Source: a virus. Taken from it: DNA of 64,000 nucleotides. Position 1 is the first letter of the stretch; each line of letters starts with the position of its first letter. The stretch covers positions 4,645-68,644 of the IMG/VR virus record IMGVR_UViG_3300037628_000326; one strand, given 5' to 3'. The notes under the pieces were generated by a model. The model worked only from the letters and a program-made list of their open reading frames with translations. It had not been told where the DNA came from and did not search any database. The position numbers and the translations under genes are program-made. Shown in pieces: positions 8,401-55,463 of the stretch.

Positions 8401-11400
8401 TGGCGTACAGGAACCACTCGACCTCGTCCCAGGTGTACTCGCTATCGTCGATCGCTTCGGTGAGCGGCCTGATGTAGTCCTTCTCGAAGTGATCGACACG
8501 CGACTTCACGCGGCCATGGAATAATTCTTCGGCCAGGTAGGTGTCAACCTCCTCGCTGATCGGCCGGCCGGTCTGTAATTCGATCGCCTTCTGCACATTC
8601 AGCAGATCGATGAACTTGTCCTGCGCTTTGTAGACCAGGTAGTTCCAGGCGCGACTGGTCTTCGACCCCTCCTCGATCGTGAAGTTTTCGAACAGGTCGC
8701 CGGACTCGATGGCATCTGCCCGACCGTTGTACTCGTCGACATGGAATGCCACGCGGTTTCCGAGTTCGCGTATTTGATTCAGCAGCCCAGCCTTGTCGAT
8801 GTACGCAGCTTCTGCCAGGTAGAAGACCAGCGGCTCCGCATCCGCCTCGGTGATATTGCCGGCACGGATTTGCGCATTCAGTTCCTTGCGATACATTGCG
8901 GCCGAACCTGAGTTCGACACACGATCGTTGTTGATCGCTTTCCACAGGTTGGCGAACATGACCGGTGCCTTACGGGCCGGCAGCAGCCCCGGTGATTTGT
9001 TTGCCGGCGTGGCGACAAACATCCGCGCCTTTCTGATCAGCCGTTGGATGTCGGCGTCGGACATCTGGACGCCCCTCAGGCGAGCTATGGCAATCCGTAT
9101 GGCCTCGACCAAGCGCTGGAGTAAGGATGCCTCTCGGGCTGGTAGCTTCTGACCAGCGAGCACACGCTGCGCCCTGTACGCAATAAACTCTTCCGCGGCG
9201 ATGCGTCGCTGCGACGGGATCCTGACATCCAGGCCGTTCCGCCGGGCGGCTGCCATGACTTTCTGTTTGTGAGATTTCCAGACCTGGTCCATGATCGTGT
9301 CGTACTCGGCGCCCAGGATAGACCGCACGCCGTAGTGACCCACCGTTTCGTGCAGGTAGATTTCTACGGCCTGCTTCATGTTCCTCAGGTTGCCGGCGAT
9401 CAGATAGACGTCGCCGGTCTCCGGGTCGAACATGCCACCGATCCTGCCCTCCATGCCGGCGTGCTTGATCTCGAGCAGTTGCCGGCGTGGCAGGTGCGCT
9501 TCGGTCGGCGCGATCTTCACGTTCGGCGACCCCGGATACAGGTCCAGGATTTCGCTGATCACGCTCTGCAGGTTAGCGATTGGCACACCAGCAGCAGGCT
9601 GCCGTGACACGGCAAACAGTGACAGGCCATCCGTGATCAGGCGCTCTCGCATCTGGTCAGAGATGTCGACTAAATGGACAGCCTCAAGATCCTCAAGGTC
9701 TCGTTTGGCCGCTCCCTCGATCGCTTCTTCTTCGCTGGAGTACGGACCCGTCCACTCATCCGCTTTATTTTTAATGCCCCACTGGTCGCCAACCACGCGC
9801 ACGGGCGCAGACACAGCCGCATCAGGCATACCCGCAAACATCCTTGCCATTCTGAGGCCTGCATCAATGTCGTCGCCAACACTTCGGGGTTCCCGATCTA
9901 CCCATCGTTCCCACGACAAACGGGGCAGCAGATCGTTAAGCTCGGCAGAGAATGCTTCCATCGAAGTCCGCGCTCTTTGTGAGTCGGGATCTTCATCGTC
10001 TATTCGCCTCGCGTTTTGCGCCGTGTTTTCAAGCCTGGCTACCGCCTCAGGCGTTATCGAAAATGCCTCCTCTTCTGCCAAGGCGATGCCAAGTTTAATA
10101 GCGTCATAGACGCTGACATGTTCTGCATCGGTGTCCTCCTCCCATGTTTCCCAGGCATAGGTAGGCAGGACCTCCTCCAGCAATTTCGTGAATCTGTCGA
10201 ACGCCTCGTTTTGTTCTGTCGATCCCTCGTCAGCAGTTTCCGTTGGCCGTGCCGCTCGTCCCGCAACTTGAACCCTGGAATAATCTTCATCCGAGATTAC
10301 CGTTCTCGGCGCTGCTGGTGCTTCCACATCTGGTGACTGCCCGACGACCATTGATAAGCCGGTGTCGATTAGCTCAAGCTGCCCCTGATCACGATCGGAA
10401 GAGATATCGTCAAGCACGGACATCTGGTCTTCGCTGATGTATTCATATAGCTCGTCAAAGAATGCGGTTTGCGCAGCCTGTTGCCTGACAGAATCCTCGT
10501 CAGCCGCATTGCGAGGCCGAGCATTTTCGGCCAGCAGACCGAGTTGCCCCATCTCTCCGTGAGTGACAATAACCGGCGGAGCATCCTCAGCAGCCAACTG
10601 CATGCCGTAGGAGACCATCTCCTCCGGGGTTGCCCGATGTGCGTAGTCTTCAAAATTCTCCCATTTCTCAGGCGACAAGATCTGTTGCAATGTATACGTG
10701 AAATTGTTCTGGGCAGTGATCTGCCTGTCGGTACCATAGTCTGCTTCGTCGATCGGCCTTGCCGCTGCCGCAAGGTCTGCCATCTGAGCATGTTGGACCC
10801 GAGCTACTTGGACCACAGGCGTTCCGGGCGGAGGCGATCCAGGCCACCGACCTACCGTGTATGGACCACCGCGGCCTTCGCTTGTGTCGATCCTGGTGCT
10901 GCTCGTCTTTACTCCCTTGTCGAGCTTCTTGACGACCTTGCTGACTAGATTGCGAATCGTCCTGTCGTAGAACGACTTCATGCCCTGACCGCCGACATCA
11001 AGATTCTCTGCCGCAATCTCCAGGCTTTCTTCGGTCTCCATGATCTGCTTTGCCATGGGAGTACCGACAACCTCCGAAAGTTTTTTCTTATCGAATTCGG
11101 CCTGGTCCGACCCGTCGATCATGCCGTCGGCTGTGACATGAAGCTGTATCGAGTTGCCCATGTGCGGATCCAGCCAGACGATGCGTACATCAGGCCGCCC
11201 CTCCAGGGCAGCCGGCAAAACTTTAATCGTGTTGAGTACCCTGCTCAGGCTGTATCGTTCTGCCTGTTGCTCGCCCGTCGTCCACGCAACCGAATCGTAT
11301 CCCTCTTCAGCCGCAAGGCGCATGACCCGTTTGATCGCGAGCTCAGCCCAGGCGTTGCCTTTGAACGGTGCATCAGGAACGGCTCCCCGTTCTTCCCTTT

Positions 11401-35272: not shown

Positions 35273-36187
35273 TTAGGTACCACCTCCTGGTGATCCATAG
35301 GCACCACGCCAATCAGACCAGCCGTAGCTGTAGCGCTCACGAGCCTTGTAGCGCAGGTTGCCAGTCTCGAAGTCGCCTTCGATTCCTCGCTGCACATTCT
35401 TGCGCACAAAATGCTTTGTGCCATCAGGGCAATCGGTCAAAAGAAACCAGGCATCCGGATCGGTGAATCGGTGATTCACGCAGAACCCGTCGGCCACTGT
35501 TCCCAGTGTGTTGATTGCATTGATGTCGTTATCGCCTGTGCCGGTTCGATATGGCGACTGCAGGATTCGTGTTGCCACGAATTGCAGTTGCGTCGGCACC
35601 GCCATCTTCTTGATCTGACAAGCGATCGGGATTCCCCGATCATCGTCAAACTCAGAGATGTCAATGGCTGCTTGCTCCAATGAAGCCTCGGACAGATCAG
35701 CCGCGACTGCCAGGGTGTTAGCCTGGACGCCACCGCCGAACTGCGGATGCGATGCACTAAACAGCGGCACACCGTCGCCACCTGGGAAGGTAGCGTCGAA
35801 GCCGTTGTTAAAGATGTCCGCACCCTTAACTTCTTTGGTCTGTTGCAGTGAGCGAGCGAGCGCTCGAGCGTATTTGCTACCGATAGAGCCGTACAAGCCG
35901 TCCTCTTCAGCTTCCTCGGTTATTGAGAAAGCCAATGCGATCGTCTCATGCGTATATCGGGCAACGTAACTCTCAGCCCCCTCGTCGTACGCGACACCCT
36001 CACCTTCAGGCTTGACCGGTGCTGCGTCGAAGCCAGCGAGCAGGACATCTTCCTCGAAGGCCTTGACCGACCGTTCGATTGCGAAAAGATATTTCCACTC
36101 TTCGGGGTAGCGTGCGTACTCCATGCCAAACACCGTGTTCAGCCCTTCCTGTAGCTGCTTCCTAAAGTCAGCGCGATTCATAGCCAT
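35273..36187 (-). CDS. Major capsid protein
   Basis: L.EGLN..FG.EY...GF..APVK.EG..V.YD...RYTHETIAL.F.ITEEA.ED.LY...ALARS...DFETGN.RYKARERYS.GWSD.RG.YGSPG; position after scaffold and decoration genes. Confidence 0.9.
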   Translation of the reverse strand: MAMNRADFRKQLQEGLNTVFGMEYARYPEEWKYLFAIERSVKAFEEDVLLAGFDAAPVKPEGEGVAYDEGAESYVARYTHETIALAFSITEEAEEDGLYGSIGSKYARALARSLQQTKEVKGADIFNNGFDATFPGGDGVPLFSASHPQFGGGVQANTLAVAADLSEASLEQAAIDISEFDDDRGIPIACQIKKMAVPTQLQFVATRILQSPYRTGTGDNDINAINTLGTVADGFCVNHRFTDPDAWFLLTDCPDGTKHFVRKNVQRGIEGDFETGNLRYKARERYSYGWSDWRGAYGSPGGGT

Positions 36188-36836: not shown

Positions 36837-37586
36837 TTAAAAGTCGTCGTCGGCTGCCTCTACTTGCCTGGCTGTACCTTGGGCGACTCTTACCCTGGAG
36901 CGCGACGCTGACCGGATGTTTCCAAAACCAATGTGGTCCTCGCTATGCACTCCCTTGACTTGCCGTTCGACCGCGCCAGTTTGCCGAGCTTGCTTACGCT
37001 TGTAGAAGCGTTCGCGTTGCTGAGCGACACGTTCAGGCATTTCCATCAGGATCAAATCCTCTGCGCCGATATAGTCCCCGTCGCCCAGGCTGTCGTGTTG
37101 GATGATCGGCAGTGAAAGACCACCCATGGCCGAAGCCTTGACTGGTCGCCATCCCTCACGCATTGCCTTCCTCAGGCGAGCGGTGTCTCGGACGTTTCCA
37201 AGACGTATCCGAATCCAACGCTGGACCATGCCCGGCCTTGCCGGCGGGGCTTCCAGGTCTGACGGCCTGATCCACTCGGTGACCTCGTTATCGAGATCGG
37301 CCGTGTAGTCAGATGCCGCTGCTTGGTCAGTGTTTTCATCATGCGGTGCCTCGTGCCCGGATCCGGCTGGATGCACCATCTGATCGCCAGTGTTTCTCTG
37401 GCCTTGCTTCTCGGCAGCCTTACGCTTCTCGAGCGCTTTACGCTTGCCATCCTGCATTCTCTTGACCGCCGCCTGCTGGGCGGGAGTCCTTTCTGGTTTC
37501 TCTGCCTCGGCTACCTGGGGATCAAATTCCTCAGCAGCATCGACATCGACATCAAACACGCTGTCGCCTTGTCCAGGTCCCGTCAT
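36837..37586 (-). CDS. Conserved head-module protein
   Basis: W..PS.L.APP..PG...RWIR...REGW.PV...LILM.MP...R..Y motif; ATGA-coupled to the scaffold. Confidence 0.7.
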   Translation of the reverse strand: MTGPGQGDSVFDVDVDAAEEFDPQVAEAEKPERTPAQQAAVKRMQDGKRKALEKRKAAEKQGQRNTGDQMVHPAGSGHEAPHDENTDQAAASDYTADLDNEVTEWIRPSDLEAPPARPGMVQRWIRIRLGNVRDTARLRKAMREGWRPVKASAMGGLSLPIIQHDSLGDGDYIGAEDLILMEMPERVAQQRERFYKRKQARQTGAVERQVKGVHSEDHIGFGNIRSASRSRVRVAQGTARQVEAADDDF

Positions 37587-38620
37587 GACGCTCTCCTTTC
37601 TGCATCTCGCCTGTTGGTTTCGGCTACCTGCTTGGCGTACTCGGCGCAATGCTCAGCGTTCTGGGGATCCAGATGGAACCTGACCATGTTGGCCTTGTGC
37701 GCTGCAGTCAGCACGACCTTCGAACCACCACCTTGACCGTTGTCGCCGCGCTTCGTGCCACGCCGCTGCCCGCCGGCACCGCCGGGTTGAGCAACTGGTG
37801 ACTTGCGGCGGCCCCTGCCCGGATCCGGCTCGAGATCAATATCGATATCGTCCGGATCTGGCTCACGAAGGCCTTCGTACTTCTTGTCAAAGTTATGGTT
37901 GAAACGAGTCCAGTAGGCTTCGCTGTCCGGGTTGAAACCCATCCCAACGAGCTTTTTGTCAAGCTTCCTGGCGTACACAACAGCATCTTCATGATCGGGA
38001 TCGGACCACCATTCCTGGTTGTCCCGAATGAATTGCATGGCGCGTTTGTTTACTGGCAGTTCGCCAGCCCTGTCACCCTCCAAGTCCTCGATGATTGACA
38101 CAGAGGCCTCAGCGGCAGCCTGCTTGGCCTGCTTCTCGCTGTTGAGTGCGATCAGGTCGGAGTTCAGCTTGGACTGGGCTTTGGTATCGCCTTCCTCCAT
38201 CGCTGCTTCCATCTCTTCAGTCAGCCGCGTTTCTTCTGCAGCGAACTCATCTGCGATGGCGTCGATTTGCTTGCCGGCCTTGAGCTCCGCAACTTCCTTC
38301 TTGAGCGCGTTGACCTCGCCGGCAACGACCTCGCTGGCTTCCTCGAGGTCCACCTCCAACTGATCTACTTTGCGACGGTCCAGTGCTTCGCGTCGCTTGT
38401 CCTTCGGGCTACTGTCCCGATCGCCTGCGGACGTTGCGTCGGCATCGTTATCGGCAGCGCTCACAGCTTTCCCGGGGTCTTCCTCATCAAGGTCGACCTC
38501 CACAAAAGCCTCGTCTGGATTCTCAGGGTCCTCGACCATGTCCCCAAACCCAGCGGCAGATACCGGCGTGTTTTCACGGCGGATATCTTCGAACTCGTAG
38601 TCGAATTGTTTCTTAGGCAT
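37583..38620 (-). CDS. Capsid scaffolding protein
   Basis: Acidic coiled coil, N.WW...Y...D, SPVA...V.LT...EYAK C-terminus. Confidence 0.7.
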   Translation of the reverse strand: MPKKQFDYEFEDIRRENTPVSAAGFGDMVEDPENPDEAFVEVDLDEEDPGKAVSAADNDADATSAGDRDSSPKDKRREALDRRKVDQLEVDLEEASEVVAGEVNALKKEVAELKAGKQIDAIADEFAAEETRLTEEMEAAMEEGDTKAQSKLNSDLIALNSEKQAKQAAAEASVSIIEDLEGDRAGELPVNKRAMQFIRDNQEWWSDPDHEDAVVYARKLDKKLVGMGFNPDSEAYWTRFNHNFDKKYEGLREPDPDDIDIDLEPDPGRGRRKSPVAQPGGAGGQRRGTKRGDNGQGGGSKVVLTAAHKANMVRFHLDPQNAEHCAEYAKQVAETNRRDAERRAS

Positions 38621-38680
38621 GCTGCCCTCCAGCGGCCTGTGCATGAAACTTACAGAGTCACGCGCGCGTTGTCACGATGA

Positions 38681-50888: not shown

Positions 50889-51086
50889 TCACGCTCTACG
50901 GCTCCTACTTCTGCCTACCGGTAACCCACCTGCGTCTATTTTACCCAAGTAATGACCGAGACAACAACCGAAGAAGAGTCCAATCATGTTTCCCCAGGTG
51001 ACCAGGTCGAAGAGATCAACGGCTATGCGGCCCAGTAGCAGGTAGATCAGGATGTAGTAGACAACGACAACCCGAAGCCAGTTCAC
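50889..51086 (-). CDS. Small membrane protein
   Basis: Two hydrophobic helices. Confidence 0.5.
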   Translation of the reverse strand: MNWLRVVVVYYILIYLLLGRIAVDLFDLVTWGNMIGLFFGCCLGHYLGKIDAGGLPVGRSRSRRA

Positions 51087-51508
51087 TGCACGATGTTCCC
51101 GTCTTTGGCCAGCGGGTTCTGGTCAGCGCAGCCCGTGCTGTGCAACTGTCCGTAGCTCGCACCGCAGCAACTGCAGGTCTTCGGCAGGCCGTCGCAGCCT
51201 ATGTTCACCGGGTGGTTGCCATCGCAGTCATAGCAATACGGTGCCTTCATGGGGCTGTTCTGGTGATGTTCTGGTACGTTGGGCCCGGCGAGTTGTGTTT
51301 CAGGCCACCCTGGTGGCCGCTTTTGAGGCAATTCTGCCCGATTTACGGTGATTGGGAGCGAATGATGCTGCCTGGCGAGTAGTCCGACCCAGTCCTCAGG
51401 GACCTCTACATCCTCCCCTTCGACGATCACAGCCACCTCGACGCCACGTGTATGCATGACGTCGATCTGCCCGTCGTCAACGTAGATCAGGACCTTGGGG
51501 GTAATCAT
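51083..51508 (-). CDS. Hypothetical protein with C-terminal Cys clusters
   Basis: CYDC..H...C / CSCCG...H..GC. Confidence 0.55.
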   Translation of the reverse strand: MITPKVLIYVDDGQIDVMHTRGVEVAVIVEGEDVEVPEDWVGLLARQHHSLPITVNRAELPQKRPPGWPETQLAGPNVPEHHQNSPMKAPYCYDCDGNHPVNIGCDGLPKTCSCCGASYGQLHSTGCADQNPLAKDGNIVQ

Positions 51509-51867
51509 CCGGGCTTTGGCCAGTCGTCAGGCTCGTAATCGGCGTACACCTCCTTGAATGCTTTATTGAGGCCATCGGCCATCTGCTGTGAGAACTCGGA
51601 CCTGGTCAGGATACCGCCGCGCTTCTTGACGTCTACGCACAACTGCTCGAGTGATGCCTCGGTCAGGTCGTACGGTATGGTCGCGCCTTCAGCTTTGAGC
51701 GGCGCCAGGCCGAAGCCTTCGGTCAGGTCATGGTGTGCGGCATCGTGCAGCAGGGCTGGATGTTTCATGCTGCCCAGCGCCACACCGTCATCAGGAATGA
51801 GCTTCTCGCTCACTACCGCAGCGGTGGCTACGCCGGCCAGGCGCTTCAGGAATCCTCGTCTCTTCAT
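51505..51867 (-). CDS. Tat-signal protein built from scrambled major-capsid fragments (protein B)
   Basis: MKRRGFLK plus hydrophobic helix; DGVALGSMKHP, GFGLAPLKAEGATIPYD, DLTEASLEQ and RSEFSQQMADGLNKAF..YADY.PDDW match four MCP segments. Confidence 0.8.
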   Translation of the reverse strand: MKRRGFLKRLAGVATAAVVSEKLIPDDGVALGSMKHPALLHDAAHHDLTEGFGLAPLKAEGATIPYDLTEASLEQLCVDVKKRGGILTRSEFSQQMADGLNKAFKEVYADYEPDDWPKPG

Positions 51868-51920
51868 GTCGTGACCTCGTCTGGACTTGAACGACCGTTC
51901 GGTTCTCGTTCGCGTTTCGT

Positions 51921-52172
51921 TCAGCTTTCGTTCGGTCCCTCGACCTCGCGGCGAATCTTTTCCTCGAGGTACCTTCGGCGCTCAGTAGCTGGCTTCGCTG
52001 GCTTCGTTGGCTTCTTTGCCTCTGGCTTCTTGGGCGGTGGCTTGGGGGCCGGCGCTTCGCCGTACTCCTCCTCGCGGCGCTTACGTCGAGCTTCGCGCTT
52101 CGTTGCTACCTTGCACGAGATGCCCTTCGGGTCTTCCCGGCAAATCTCTTTGGCAGACCGCGAAGAGGGCAC
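51921..52172 (-). CDS. Lys/Arg/Pro-rich small protein
   Basis: 83-aa low-complexity ORF. Confidence 0.45.
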   Translation of the reverse strand: MPSSRSAKEICREDPKGISCKVATKREARRKRREEEYGEAPAPKPPPKKPEAKKPTKPAKPATERRRYLEEKIRREVEGPNES

Positions 52173-52516
52173 TACTGCTCCCTCTCCACGGCTTCATCCG
52201 TGTCCTTGCCTCGGTCCCGTAGCGTGTCGATCGTGGACCGACCAGGCGTGCCGATAGTAGTCGGCTGTGGCTTGGGTGCTGCTGCTGTCGCCACCTCTGG
52301 TTCATCGCGTGCTTTTTCGCTGGCGTCTTTGCCTTCCTGGACGCGACGTTCAATCTCGCGGCGTCTGGTTGCAGCATCGGCCGGACCCACTTTGGGGCGC
52401 GGTCGTGTGCTTGGCTTAGGTGTAGACAGTGGCGCACCGTGAGCAACAACTGGTTTCTCTGCCGGCTTGTCAGGCCTGCCTGCATTCGCCCTACGATCTG
52501 CCCTTCGATCGGCCAC
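52172..52516 (-). CDS. Low-complexity hypothetical protein
   Basis: TAGTG-coupled ORF. Confidence 0.45.
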   Translation of the reverse strand: MADRRADRRANAGRPDKPAEKPVVAHGAPLSTPKPSTRPRPKVGPADAATRRREIERRVQEGKDASEKARDEPEVATAAAPKPQPTTIGTPGRSTIDTLRDRGKDTDEAVEREQ

Positions 52517-52788
52517 TACTTCTGCGACGGTGCTGACCGAACCTTGCCGTAGCGAGGATCGTCGTAGCCGCCGCTCTCCGCGTTGCCCGTGCGTTCGCTG
52601 CGTAGCTCAGCGGATGAACCTTCATCGGCTGCTCTGGTCGCGTACGGCGGGTCATACGGTGGGAAGTGTGGATAGTCCTCCATCTTCCGCATCCCGAATT
52701 CGACATCGCCTTCTTCGGGATAGGTGTCAGCAGGATTGTCTTCAGTGGGCGTCTCGTGAAGCTGCCCTGGTTTCAATCGCTCGTCCAT
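52516..52788 (-). CDS. Acidic disordered hypothetical protein
   Basis: GGAGG RBS. Confidence 0.5.
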   Translation of the reverse strand: MDERLKPGQLHETPTEDNPADTYPEEGDVEFGMRKMEDYPHFPPYDPPYATRAADEGSSAELRSERTGNAESGGYDDPRYGKVRSAPSQK

Positions 52789-52839
52789 TGTAGCCCTCCA
52801 ACAATGGTGATTTGCGGTTTTTGCTGCTCGCGGAGTCTA

Positions 52840-53049
52840 TCACCCTCGAGCTTTGTGTGTCTTGGTCGGGTTGCCGCTGGGCGTCACGCAGGCCTCGCCT
52901 GGTTTAGCCCCGCACTTCGGACAGTCATTCCCGTCTGCCGGGTCAGCGGCCGCAGTATCTCCGCCAGTTGCTTGTGCTTCGCGCTGTCTGTTGCGCGCCG
53001 TGCCGGCACGGTTTCCCTGCCTGCGTTTGAGGTCTTTCCTGCGGCCCAT
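52840..53049 (-). CDS. Small zinc-finger protein
   Basis: CPKCGAKPGEAC...H..R; AGGAG RBS. Confidence 0.65.
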   Translation of the reverse strand: MGRRKDLKRRQGNRAGTARNRQREAQATGGDTAAADPADGNDCPKCGAKPGEACVTPSGNPTKTHKARG

Positions 53050-53058
53050 AGCTGTCTC

Positions 53059-53247
53059 CTAAGCTGGTATTTTGTCGATGATTTTCTCGGCCATTTTCTC
53101 GACTGGATCGTAGAGGTTGCCGATGATGATGCCAGCGGCCATGCCTCCGAAGAATAATGTCGTGGCTCCAGGCCACACGAAAAACAGCACCAGAGCAACA
53201 CCGCCAGCGAGTATCGCTTGCTTGCCCATCTTCTTGAGAAAGTCCAT
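53059..53247 (-). CDS. Small 2-TM membrane protein
   Basis: MDFLKKMGK... after GAGGAGG. Confidence 0.6.
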   Translation of the reverse strand: MDFLKKMGKQAILAGGVALVLFFVWPGATTLFFGGMAAGIIIGNLYDPVEKMAEKIIDKIPA

Positions 53248-53269
53248 GCGTGTCCTCCTCTCAGTGATC

Positions 53270-53626
53270 GAGGAGCGCGATCGACGTAGAGAGCCTATTC
53301 CCCAACAGAGTCGATGGCTGGGTACCGTACGGTTTCCCATTCCCCAGCGGCGTCTTGCGGTCGCTCCAGCTTATCTTGTCGGAGATCAAAGGCGCGCCAA
53401 CGTCTCCATCCAAGTCATGCAAGCCATCTCTGCGAACCGGGCCGTTCCTTGCCAGGCACCATACGGTGCCCTTCATCGCTCAACGCAGTTTGTTTGCTCT
53501 CGTCGAACGCGCTCACAAAAACCCTCAGGAGTTCTCGTACCCACGGTCCAGTCATATGCTCGGTTCTTGACCTGACTGGCCCCGGACTGCATAACGCCCG
53601 TTGCCCGAGGGTTTTTGTCAACGCGC
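53270..53626. ncRNA. Candidate structured non-coding RNA/regulatory element
   Basis: No convincing ORF; nested inverted repeats ACAAAAACCCTC (53515-26)/GAGGGTTTTTGT (53607-18) and CCAGTCA/TGACTGG, plus further hairpins near 53280-53340. Confidence 0.3.
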
Positions 53627-53934
53627 TACACTCTAGCGGCTACTCGTCTCGCTCGCTTCTCCTTCCTGCCCGCGGTATCAGCATCCAACAGCGCCTGGCG
53701 GTCTGCCTTGGCTGCGGCTGCTGCCTCCTCGGCTGCCTCAGTATCCCAGCCGATCGTCTTGCCCCATTCCTCCATGATTTTCGCTTCGTATTTCTCGCGC
53801 AGTTTCGCGAGCGCCTTGTGCGCGCGCTTCACGAGTTTGGGGTCTGGTTGCAAGTCCTTGCGGCTGGCCCTGTGGATGCCGGCAGAGATGGCCAGGCTCA
53901 GGCTGAACTTGCCGCAGTCGCGTCTAACGCCCAC
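53626..53934 (-). CDS. Hypothetical basic protein
   Basis: 102-aa ORF; start uncertain. Confidence 0.45.
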   Translation of the reverse strand: MGVRRDCGKFSLSLAISAGIHRASRKDLQPDPKLVKRAHKALAKLREKYEAKIMEEWGKTIGWDTEAAEEAAAAAKADRQALLDADTAGRKEKRARRVAARV

Positions 53935-54133
53935 GGCCCTTGCCCTTCATTGCTTTGGATAGTCGGCCGGAGCGCTGGTCGGCTTTGTTATATTCTTGCG
54001 CGACCTTTCGGGTGACGCCGGCCTTCCGAGCTTTCTCCGGATTGTGCGCCATCATCGCCATGTATCTGGCTTGCTTGTTCGACCTGCTCGGCATCACGGT
54101 ACCCTCCGTGCGTTTGCCGGAGTTTAGCGATGG

Positions 54134-54430
54134 CTATTGCCTGTGTCCAGCGAGAATCCTGATCTCGCATGCTCGGCGGCGAAATCTGCTGCGGTCGTAG
54201 TGCCTCACGACAGGCAGATAAACTGGGGATCGAGCCGGCGAATACACCGGGGTGTACATCTGGCGATGGCCGTAGGTCGCGCTCCACAGCGTGTACCGCA
54301 GTGGATCCTGAACGTAGAGATAGGCCTCCGGCATCGGGTAGGCATACCAGAACGAATCGTGCTCGGCATGCGCGACATTTAGCCCGAAGGCTAAATTTAG
54401 ACAGGCGAGTAAAGCGATCTTGATTTTCAT
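54134..54430 (-). CDS. Secreted hypothetical protein
   Basis: MKIKIALLACLNLAFGLNVAHA signal peptide; GGAGG RBS. Confidence 0.55.
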   Translation of the reverse strand: MKIKIALLACLNLAFGLNVAHAEHDSFWYAYPMPEAYLYVQDPLRYTLWSATYGHRQMYTPVYSPARSPVYLPVVRHYDRSRFRRRACEIRILAGHRQ

Positions 54431-54531
54431 GTGTGGCCTCCCTGGAGAGCCATCATGGCTCCGGTGCCAAAGATGTAGATCATGCCCAGTAGGATGACGA
54501 TGATCACAATTCTGATTATCCATTTTGCCAT
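54427..54531 (-). CDS. 34-aa single-TM peptide
   Basis: MAKWIIRIVIIVILLGMIYIFG after GAGGAGG. Confidence 0.5.
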   Translation of the reverse strand: MAKWIIRIVIIVILLGMIYIFGTGAMMALQGGHT

Positions 54532-54541
54532 GATTTCCTCC

Positions 54542-55207
54542 TCAGGATAGGGCACCAGTCTCATTATCGATGGTCGCCGGGGCGCCCTTGTCTGGCAGTT
54601 TCGCATGGCTCTGGAGCTCAGCCATCCACTTCTCAAGAATCTCGTCCGGCACCTGCGACAAGTCCACCCGGTAGGTCTTGGTGATGCGCTGCTCGAGGAT
54701 GAGCTTCTCGTTGAACATGCCGAGATGCTGACCCATGTCGCGCAACGATTGGCGCTTGTCGTAGAACGTGTAGCGGTAATCGAAATCGTAGCCGCCATCG
54801 ATCACGACTTTCTGCCGGTCCCAGCTGGCGACCGCTTTCGCCTGGTCATCAGTCAATTCATTCGGCGCCTTGCCGATCACCATCGGTGTCCCGCGGTACT
54901 CGACTACCCGAATGTAATTCTTGGGATTGATGAATCCCATGGCAGCCAGTTCCTCGACGACGGCGTCGACGGTGACATCAAAGTTGCGCTGGATAACCTC
55001 GGCCTTCGCCTCTCGCAGATGTGCGATGTACGGCGCAAGTTGTTTCACGAGCGTGGGGACTTTCTTCTTGACCGTCGTCTCTGCATAGCCAGCCTTCCGG
55101 CCGGCGTCGACCGGACTTAGGCCATCGACAACGAGCGCCTGGCACAGCAGGTCCTGCTGCTTGGTCTTCGGCCAGCCACGGCCATTGTGTCGCTCAATCT
55201 CAGCCAT
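54542..55207 (-). CDS. terS: Terminase small subunit
   Basis: KQQ..C...DAGRKAGYA HTH; VT.D.VVEELA.MGF; YDK..SL..MG.HLGMF. Confidence 0.85.
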   Translation of the reverse strand: MAEIERHNGRGWPKTKQQDLLCQALVVDGLSPVDAGRKAGYAETTVKKKVPTLVKQLAPYIAHLREAKAEVIQRNFDVTVDAVVEELAAMGFINPKNYIRVVEYRGTPMVIGKAPNELTDDQAKAVASWDRQKVVIDGGYDFDYRYTFYDKRQSLRDMGQHLGMFNEKLILEQRITKTYRVDLSQVPDEILEKWMAELQSHAKLPDKGAPATIDNETGALS

Positions 55208-55463
55208 CTTGACCGATCCCGAATACCTGAGAGACGCGATTGTCATCGCCGGGGAACTCATGCCAGATCATCAGGGATTGCTCCTCAGTCACGGGCCGTA
55301 CTTCAATCCGATTGGCACCCTCAACCAGCAGCCCAATGTCCTCCAGGACCTTGCCTGCGGCCTCCATTCGCGTCCAACCAGGTAACCGAGCCATACAGTT
55401 AGGCACCTGAATCTCCACCGTAGCGCCGATACTGGTCACGATCATGCCACGAATTACCTCCAA
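55200..55463 (-). CDS. Hypothetical protein
   Basis: First gene of the leftward late region; start uncertain. Confidence 0.45.
   Translation of the reverse strand: MEVIRGMIVTSIGATVEIQVPNCMARLPGWTRMEAAGKVLEDIGLLVEGANRIEVRPVTEEQSLMIWHEFPGDDNRVSQVFGIGQDG

Follow-up and report, generated by a model that had tools for sequence, protein, structure and literature searches.

How does a phage come to encode a small protein whose body reads like pieces of the phage's own major capsid protein (MCP) in the wrong order, behind what looks like an export signal, and what might such a protein do? This question is raised by gene B, an open reading frame (ORF) in IMG/VR virus record IMGVR_UViG_3300037628_000326. 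We analyzed bases 4645-68644 of this 68,644-base record, for which CheckV gives a completeness of 99%; this whole stretch of 64,000 nucleotides is called the window. The original prediction, made from the sequence alone, held that B encodes a protein with a twin-arginine translocation (Tat) signal followed by a string of four MCP segments. The ORF is present with the quoted sequence (Table 1); it starts with ATG, which is preceded by GAGG at a distance of 8-11 nt, and ends with TGA. Our analyses revealed that the body of B is a mosaic in which four conserved segments of the phage's own MCP are represented by old, diverged copies, arranged in an order that is not collinear with it, and that B is a real accessory phage gene under purifying selection. 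The identity of the gene, namely a selected small protein with a Tat-type leader and an MCP-mosaic body, is something we hold with high confidence.

The body of B is composed of capsid segments

The MCP encoded in the window matches the Pfam families PF25209 (Phage_capsid_4; E 1.3e-13, 52.3 bits, cut-off 27) and PF10124 (Mu-like gpT; 9.1e-6), as well as phrog_371, annotated as "major head protein" (1.8e-15), and it is 53-58% identical to the annotated capsids of Roseobacter phages CRP-901/902, phage DSL-LC04 and Pelagibacter phage HTVC023P. For B, there was no Pfam match at E<=0.01 and no PHROG match. When B was compared with all six-frame window ORFs of at least 40 amino acids (aa), its top non-self match was the MCP, in three separate alignments. 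Pairwise BLASTP aligned residues 87-116 of B with MCP 3-31 (12/30 identical, E 9e-6), residues 27-82 with MCP 138-179 (19/56 with a 14-residue gap, E 4e-5) and residues 48-67 with MCP 49-68 (10/20, E 7e-4), the last of which falls inside the 14-residue gap of the second. The two highest Smith-Waterman scores, 66 for B87-116 against MCP 3-31 (z 7.5) and 62 for B27-82 against MCP 138-179 (z 13.2), were reached by none of 1000 shuffles of mature B.

The alignment of the B family, described below, was also cut into blocks, and each block alone was compared with the MCP-family profile using hhalign. Every block matched the MCP stretch from which it had been predicted to come: block 1 (B27-37) matched MCP 138-148 (P 4.9e-6), block 2 (B51-67) MCP 52-68 (P 4.7e-7), block 3 (B67-86) MCP 164-186 (P 4.3e-7) and block 4 (B85-113) MCP 1-29 (P 1.6e-8). 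With the whole family, B20-86 matched MCP 131-186 with a probability of 95.9% (E 6e-9). In the reverse search, the only matches of the B-family profile in the whole 68.6-kb record were B itself, three parts of the MCP gene (E 9e-4, 2e-3 and 4e-3) and, weakly, the leader of a paralogue named A. Independent confirmation of the capsid origin was provided by tblastn searches of 50,697 phage records with A and with the family member P0049, which matched only annotated capsid genes, in 1 and 7 records, respectively.

The blocks occupy residues 27-37 and 46-116 of B, or 82 of the 100 residues beyond the leader, and Asp67 is common to blocks 2 and 3. The identity counts that had been proposed for the first three segments (7/11, 10/22 and 9/14, the last over residues 67-80) were upheld, and the count for the fourth is the 12/30, with one gap, given above. 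In MCP numbering, the blocks run 138-148, 47-68, 164-186 and 1-31 along B; as the original prediction had argued for the order 138, 47, 164, 3, such an arrangement is unobtainable by deletion within one MCP copy. Judged by HK97 topology, the blocks presumably mix peripheral arms with core elements. No significant DNA similarity between B and the MCP gene was found (the best match was 14/15 nt, E 0.06), which indicates that the copy is old.

The 100-aa body of B is acidic and hydrophilic, with an isoelectric point of 4.8 and a grand average of hydropathy of -0.45. AlphaFold2 (AF2), supplied with the family alignment, returned a low-confidence model with a predicted local distance difference test (pLDDT) score of 59, which is mostly coil and in which helices are predicted only in the leader, at residues 70-75 (the block derived from helix a5) and at residues 89-109 (the N-arm block). 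On its own, B is therefore predicted to be largely disordered, and with two short helices in a body that consists mostly of blocks, its description as a string of motifs is apt. For the MCP itself, the AF2 model built with 25 close relatives had a mean pLDDT of 58, with values below 50 in the N-arm, E-loop and spine helix, and the MCP profile gave 0 matches to PDB sequences at E<=0.01.

The leader of B and its relatives

The N-terminus of B, M-K-R-R-G-F-L-K, fits the twin-arginine consensus (S/T)-R-R-x-F-L-K, and the hydrophobic region (h-region) LAGVATAAVV is present. Residues R3, R4 and F6 are invariant across 35 aligned relatives. The pattern RRx[FL][LIVMF] occurs within the first 40 aa of 78 of the 81 family proteins, and the three without an RR motif start inside the h-region and look N-terminally cut. 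Of 35 members, 30 are recognized by the model TIGR01409 (TAT_signal_seq) at E<=10, the best at 0.0057, and paralogue A is recognized by the Pfam model TAT_signal at E 4.1e-4; models of Tat signals are very short, and scores under threshold are therefore common. A search for RR.F[LIVM][KRQ] in all six frames of the window detected A and B only. Plausible cleavage sites, between GAA and N or between VLA and N, are present in several relatives and in A. On the strength of the invariant RR-x-F and the family pattern, we read the leader of B as being of the Tat type.

According to extracts of PMC6708511, Tat tolerates unstructured hydrophilic passengers of 100-120 aa, though not hydrophobic stretches, it exports folded complexes, and partners bound to a substrate are co-exported by a hitchhiker mechanism. 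The sizes of the family proteins agree with the limit for unfolded passengers. A derivation of the leader from the N-terminus of the MCP was considered and rejected, as the similarity between B1-10 and MCP 3-12 is not significant (hhalign P 0.05, probability 1%).

B belongs to a family of genes under selection

In a 90%-clustered collection, 50 of 64 candidates were relatives of B at E<=0.01, and in a 50%-identity library the family comprised 39 clusters at E<=1e-3. The lengths of the clusters are 72-154 aa, with the exception of one of 221 aa and of P0075 (3058 aa), a repeat protein that was rejected as a spurious match. Gene B is located at the same position, at 84-86% DNA identity, in three viral contigs (L001-L003) whose synteny with the window extends over DNA of about 80-86% identity. 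The ratio of nonsynonymous to synonymous substitution rates (dN/dS) of B is 0.25-0.52 in 6/6 pairs. Between the window and the related record G001, B and the MCP have the same dS (0.31 and 0.30, respectively), so B did not arrive independently; their dN/dS values are 0.40 (B; P 0.0026 versus neutrality) and 0.03 (MCP), which makes the constraint on B about 13 times looser. With at least 39 clusters, conserved synteny and dN/dS below 1, B is no unique relic.

No B homologue was found in cultured phages by tblastn at E<=0.1, and the fact that A and P0049 match only capsid genes in these phages indicates that the small genes are accessory. Only two records, G001 and G005, contain both a family gene and an MCP; five other related records without an MCP match are fragments. 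A search for longer family proteins gave 455 candidates, none at E<=0.01, and no fused form was found among them. A scan of genome contigs with leader-derived patterns gave 600 pattern matches, none of which was confirmed, and it found no prophage copy or host. The top matches in the ESM Atlas, scoring 0.89 or less, were viral hypothetical clusters, one Tat-leader hydrogenase small subunit and one TAT_signal cluster, which serve as leads only. The picture that emerges is of a fast-evolving, module-shuffling family with several paralogues per phage.

Order and exchange of modules within the family

Nine module hidden Markov models (HMMs) were made from the MCP alignment and scored on 100 family proteins, i.e., 81 database proteins and 19 leader-bearing ORFs from the window and the related loci, with some proteins present in both sets. 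No score above 6.6 bits was obtained with five-fold shuffles. With 8 bits as the threshold, 83 domain hits fell to the first strand of the E-loop (E1; its shuffles reached at most 2.1 bits), followed by the N-arm (41), helix 161-187 (a5; 39), strand 133-149 (bF; 29) and the spine helix (16). The modules for MCP 272-299 (C2) and 236-258 (C1) had three and two hits, respectively, and those for MCP 72-92 (E2) and 188-235 (mid) had none. The family thus draws almost only on MCP 1-186.

Two or more modules at 7 bits or more were present in 72 proteins, 13 of them collinear with the MCP and 59 non-collinear. The commonest orders are E1>a5>N-arm (19), bF>E1>a5>N-arm (12) and E1>spine (10), and the usual grammar can be written as leader-(138)-47-(164 or spine helix)-(N-arm). 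The homologues do differ in the order of their segments, a point that the original prediction had proposed to check, though one grammar dominates. Exceptions are P0072 with E1>bF>N-arm, in which 47 is ahead of 138, and P0079 with spine>C2>E1>C1, that is, the spine helix, 272-299, 47 and 236-258. Modules have been exchanged, lost or reordered between relatives.

In one or two of its members, the family also borrows from another head protein. The window encodes a 353-aa protein without a Pfam or PHROG match (Table 1), which may be scaffold-like, judging by its position and composition only. In P0046 and P0048, the last module, which follows E1, is a copy of the C-terminal ~45 aa of this protein. 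Residues 64-100 of P0046 match residues 313-349 of the 353-aa protein at 16/37 positions (E 5e-5 in the window-ORF database, 2e-7 pairwise); for P0048, the match to the C-terminus has E 0.006 in the window-ORF database and 2e-5 pairwise. Some members have acidic D-P-x-S-F-E-E-L-W tails that were compared with the N-terminus of the 353-aa protein; this candidate relationship, with E 3e-4 in pairwise comparison only and absent at E<=0.5 in the window-ORF database, is unproven.

The Asp residue shared by blocks 2 and 3 had been taken as a hint of microhomology-mediated shuffling, and this idea was not supported by comparison with the relatives. Many of them have 6-9 extra residues between the two blocks (…Y-D-D-L-x-A-P-L-A-P-D-L-S-E…), which lengthen the MCP-like match by about three residues, to about MCP 161. 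The tight joint of B therefore suggests a later loss of internal sequence, possibly between two D-L repeats, and not the original joint.

B conserves the positions that capsid proteins conserve

The consensus sequences of the B family and the MCP family agree at 43 of 77 aligned block positions. The agreement is 21/24 at MCP-invariant positions versus 22/53 elsewhere (Fisher P 1.6e-4), and of the 18 positions with at least 90% conservation in the B family, 17 have the residue of the MCP consensus. Lys58, Glu60 and Gly61 of B, in block 2, are conserved at 100%. Although ancestry explains part of this agreement, the conservation of MCP-like positions in a body with predicted disorder suggests that contacts of the capsid type are under selection.

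The invariant Lys-x-Glu-Gly in the E-loop strand, with its Lys at residue 59 in the MCP and residue 58 in B, is the top-conserved spot in both families. In HK97, the capsid cross-link involves a Lys.

Genetic organization of the island containing B

Gene B is located in an island between the genes for the small and large subunits of terminase (TerS and TerL; Table 1). In CRP-901/902, the closest cultured relatives, the TerL match runs into the annotated small subunit, which means that the two terminase genes abut there; the island of the window splits them. The same island also contains paralogue A. Residues 37-81 of A are collinear with MCP 78-133, the E-loop return strand and spine helix (24/56, pairwise E 8.6e-10), and A scores 31-33 bits with the spine module. 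In five of the seven loci with enough downstream sequence, namely the window and L001-L004, a B-type gene has an A-type gene 3.4-4.3 kb downstream; in L005 and L006, no A-type gene is present within 6 kb.

There are up to three fragment genes per locus, in a row in L007, and 4 kb of the related record G002 contain three separate matches to MCP fragments. A third kind of capsid-fragment gene is located between B and A in L001, L004 and, with a weaker match, L002. The window has no counterpart of this gene, and a search for further relatives of the anchored C-terminal fragment it encodes found only the query's own record and that of L001. No Pfam or PHROG family match was obtained for the 141-aa product of the gene overlapping the end of B, and a scan for promoters and terminators around B found nothing exceeding shuffles. 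No lysis enzyme was seen near the two small membrane proteins upstream of A.

Table 1. Positions of gene B, its parts, and other features of the window and of related loci
Feature	Positions	Strand	Remarks
Gene B	51505..51867	minus	intact ORF of 120 aa; Tat-type leader and four MCP-derived blocks
Tat-type leader of B, residues 1-20	51808..51867	minus	RRGFLK, then short Ala/Val/Thr/Gly h-region
Block 1, B residues 27-37	51757..51789	minus	like MCP 138-148, strand after spine helix
Block 2, B residues 46-67	51667..51732	minus	like MCP 47-68, first E-loop strand; family hallmark
Block 3, B residues 67-86	51610..51669	minus	like MCP 164-186, A-domain helix and what follows
Block 4, B residues 87-116	51520..51609	minus	like MCP 3-31, N-terminal arm; C-terminal in B
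Gene downstream of B	51083..51508	minus	141 aa; ATG overlaps TGA of B (ATGA); Cys-rich C-terminus
MCP	35273..36187	minus	304 aa, HK97-type; source of the blocks; Pfam and PHROG matches
353-aa head-module protein	37583..38644	minus	acidic, coiled-coil-like; between portal and MCP
Accessory island	47404..54541	minus	7.1 kb, between TerS and TerL; A, B, secreted FN3-like and small membrane proteins
TerS	54542-55261		phrog_51 4.2e-12; PF03592 1.2e-8
TerL	45799-47403		phrog_38 1.1e-66
Paralogue A	47406..47762	minus	118 aa; GTG start overlaps upstream stop (GTGA); Tat-type leader and MCP 78-133
Small predicted membrane protein	47759-48010		directly upstream of A; stop overlaps GTG of A; phrog_3555 (function unknown) 4.4e-10
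Small predicted membrane protein	48007-48387		upstream of A
Secreted FN3-like protein	48264-48593		adjoins Tat-leader genes
Secreted protein	48690-49247		Sec-type leader; Pfam fn3 1.2e-5
PAPS-reductase-like gene	49715-50524		phrog_424 E 3.7e-41
Third kind of capsid-fragment gene	L001 4917-5186		MCP 272-299; between B and A; 27 bits
Third kind of capsid-fragment gene	L004 11723-12115		MCP 272-299; between B and A; 34 bits
Third kind of capsid-fragment gene	L002 4226-4453		between B and A; weaker match
Tat-leader gene group	L007 7912-10324		three genes close together, 233, 76 and 113 aa; last two overlap

A possible role as a capsid mimic

What might a selected string of capsid motifs behind a Tat-type leader be for? 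Tentatively, and with a likelihood that we place well below even, we propose that B is a capsid mimic. After translation, the leader would bring the body to the Tat machinery of the host, and the body would then be exported or held at the inner membrane. It would show, as linear motifs, elements that are recognized by binders of unassembled capsid protein, and as a competitive binder it could titrate or relocate a capsid-binding partner. Candidate partners would be a host capsid sensor, the head protein of a rival phage or satellite, or the phage's own scaffold. We conjecture that action at the inner membrane or during export would be favored over a purely periplasmic one, because the leader is of the Tat and not the Sec type and because relatives encode anchored fragments without a leader. 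The family behaves as accessory genes in an arms race do, with its location in an island, its absence in cultured relatives, the swapping of modules and the multiple fragment genes. Taking the identity of the gene and the mimic mechanism together, we would put our confidence slightly short of an even chance.

Several points weigh against this proposal. The role of B, its export and its partner are conjectural. An exported body would have to act before export or in its course if it is to meet capsid sensors in the cytoplasm. B scores 14.3 bits with TIGR01409 (E 0.039), below the cut-off of 16.7, and A scores 20.6 bits with the Pfam family TAT_signal (PF10518; E 4.1e-4), below the cut-off of 22.7. 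B also has no clear AxA cleavage site, cleavage at VVS before E being a possibility. The MCP 272-299 fragment genes of L001 and L004 encode no RR leader and have a C-terminal hydrophobic anchor; by the positive-inside rule, these anchored fragments would face the cytoplasm, and the common theme may be the membrane rather than the periplasm. A dN/dS of 0.4 means loose constraint on B, and the agreement at conserved positions is partly expected from ancestry and from the way in which the blocks were found.

One particular form of mimicry would account for some of these features, and we consider it to be of low probability. The family would combine a Tat leader with unfolded strings of the most conserved pieces of the phage's own core proteins (capsid and scaffold). 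The string would capture a cytoplasmic recognizer, such as an immune sensor or an assembly protein of a rival, and the leader would drag the complex to the Tat translocon, where it would be expelled by hitchhiking or parked at the membrane. Such binding and removal would explain the use of Tat over Sec, because no other route accepts cargo that has already folded and bound, and it would also explain the membrane-anchored, leaderless capsid fragment of the relatives.

Explanations that do not involve mimicry were weighed as well. The blocks are short and only 34-64% identical to the MCP of the window, so that a chance resemblance or a dead recombination relic might be suspected; the shuffles (0/1000), the four independent profile matches at the predicted places and the confirmed reciprocal matches, together with the at least 39 clusters, the synteny and the dN/dS below 1, refute this, and we give it practically no credence. 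The copies of the MCP gene could also have been mere raw material for new small secreted or membrane proteins, whose present job (envelope modification, lysis timing or signaling) would be unrelated to capsid likeness. Such an origin would agree with the secreted or membrane nature of the island neighbors (48690-49247, and the two at 47759-48387), with a similarity so old that no DNA match is left and with the loose constraint, and the leader may descend from the MCP N-terminus, though not significantly so (P 0.05). We judge it unlikely, as the family conserves what MCPs conserve (21/24; 17/18), which is unexpected for a disordered body freed from capsid-type contacts, and as its members acquired differing MCP pieces and a piece of a second head protein.

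Very unlikely, in our view, is periplasmic superinfection exclusion, in which the exported look-alike would bind proteins ejected from incoming related heads and block DNA entry. The export-type leader, the periplasm-compatible body and an island with other exported proteins are in its favor, and a block of injection by secreted phage proteins is known from other cases (T4 Imm and Sp, TP-J34 Ltp). Yet it assumes that ejected proteins bind these MCP elements, and the anchored, probably cytoplasm-facing C-terminal fragments of the relatives do not fit. It is also improbable that B helps the assembly of the phage's own head, either with A as a split mini-capsid unit or as a membrane-tethered chaperone or nucleator for the MCP or scaffold. 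A and B do cover complementary parts of MCP 1-186, 10 of 100 family proteins combine E1 (as in B) with the spine helix (as in A), B-type genes are followed by A-type genes in 5/7 loci, and extracts of PMC6708511 describe the export of folded complexes by Tat. However, at the sensitivity used, no such gene was found in cultured phages whose MCPs are 53-58% identical, which shows that it is not needed for this capsid; in addition, head assembly is cytoplasmic, and the family evolves fast and modularly under a constraint ~13 times looser than that on the MCP.

Comparison with known systems

B resembles Tat signal peptides and small Tat substrates (PF10518, TIGR01409) in having RR-x-F-L-K, a short, weakly hydrophobic h-region and a small hydrophilic passenger. 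It differs from known Tat substrates in that it is encoded by a phage, its passenger is a string of capsid pieces and not a cofactor enzyme, its scores are below the curated cut-offs, and its export is a prediction. With the HK97-fold MCPs (PF25209, PF10124) it shares four homologous blocks that retain MCP-invariant residues, but these amount to ~82 residues of 304, in scrambled order, and there is no full-length collinear match (~260 profile positions); B is derived from the Phage_capsid_4 family without being a member of it. Capsid paralogues of the T4 gp24 type are full-length and collinear, whereas B is partial and scrambled.

If B is a mimic, capsid-sensing immunity offers a class of targets. 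The Gol peptide of T4 gp23, which acts with Lit, is a capsid-derived trigger of immunity. CapRel SJ46 senses the MCP, according to an extract of PMC9712102, and Avs sensors recognize it, according to an extract of bioRxiv 10.64898/2026.01.04.697583. On these accounts, the sensors read short conserved parts of the capsid or its core fold, which is what a mimic could address; unlike the triggers of Lit, CapRel and Avs, which are parts of a real MCP, B consists of stand-alone capsid fragments with an export leader, and its decoy role is a conjecture. Precedent for small accessory proteins of mobile elements that disturb the assembly of rival virions is provided by Tai/Ati, with which, according to the abstract of PMC11364771, prophages and satellites inhibit tail assembly and protect their own. 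Compared by description only, Tai differs from B in targeting tails, and that abstract mentions neither fragments of its own target nor an export leader.

No description of export-tagged capsid-fragment proteins was found in the full text of open-access PMC and bioRxiv. If the family members are capsid mimics with an export or membrane address, they would be a kind of phage accessory protein without precedent in that literature, and they would give a handle on how phages cope with sensors or rivals that read a conserved virion core which the phage cannot change. The family is in addition a clean natural example of how duplication, deletion and reordering make new genes out of parts of an essential one, and the N-arm may even have been turned into a signal peptide, on a similarity that is not significant here (P 0.05). 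The genes are small, the predicted leader can be checked in E. coli, and the Lys-x-Glu-Gly core suggests obvious point mutants.

Additional observations

Four DNA sequencing runs labeled as marine sediment metagenome contain 97-98% of the sequence words and may be the source itself, whereas the other runs listed contain small shares; no RNA run is among the runs listed as holding the sequence.

At the site of the PAPS-reductase-like gene, L001 and L002 have other DNA, which includes the C-terminal capsid-fragment gene. In a distant relative, L007, secreted FN3-like proteins (8773-9369 and 9476-9787) adjoin Tat-leader genes as they do in the window. Of the three Tat-leader genes of L007, the 76-aa gene carries MCP 272-299 and the 113-aa gene E1 and the spine helix. 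The 233-aa protein has stretches that by eye are like MCP 241-252 and the E-loop, has no module at 7 bits or more, and contains a GPRI tandem repeat.

B has a conserved His-rich module, L-L-H-D-A-A-H-H-D-L (residues 39-47, ~51727-51753), which some family members share and others lack. No significant counterpart of HDAAHHDL was found in the MCP or other window ORFs. A metal site is conceivable here, as many natural Tat substrates carry cofactors.

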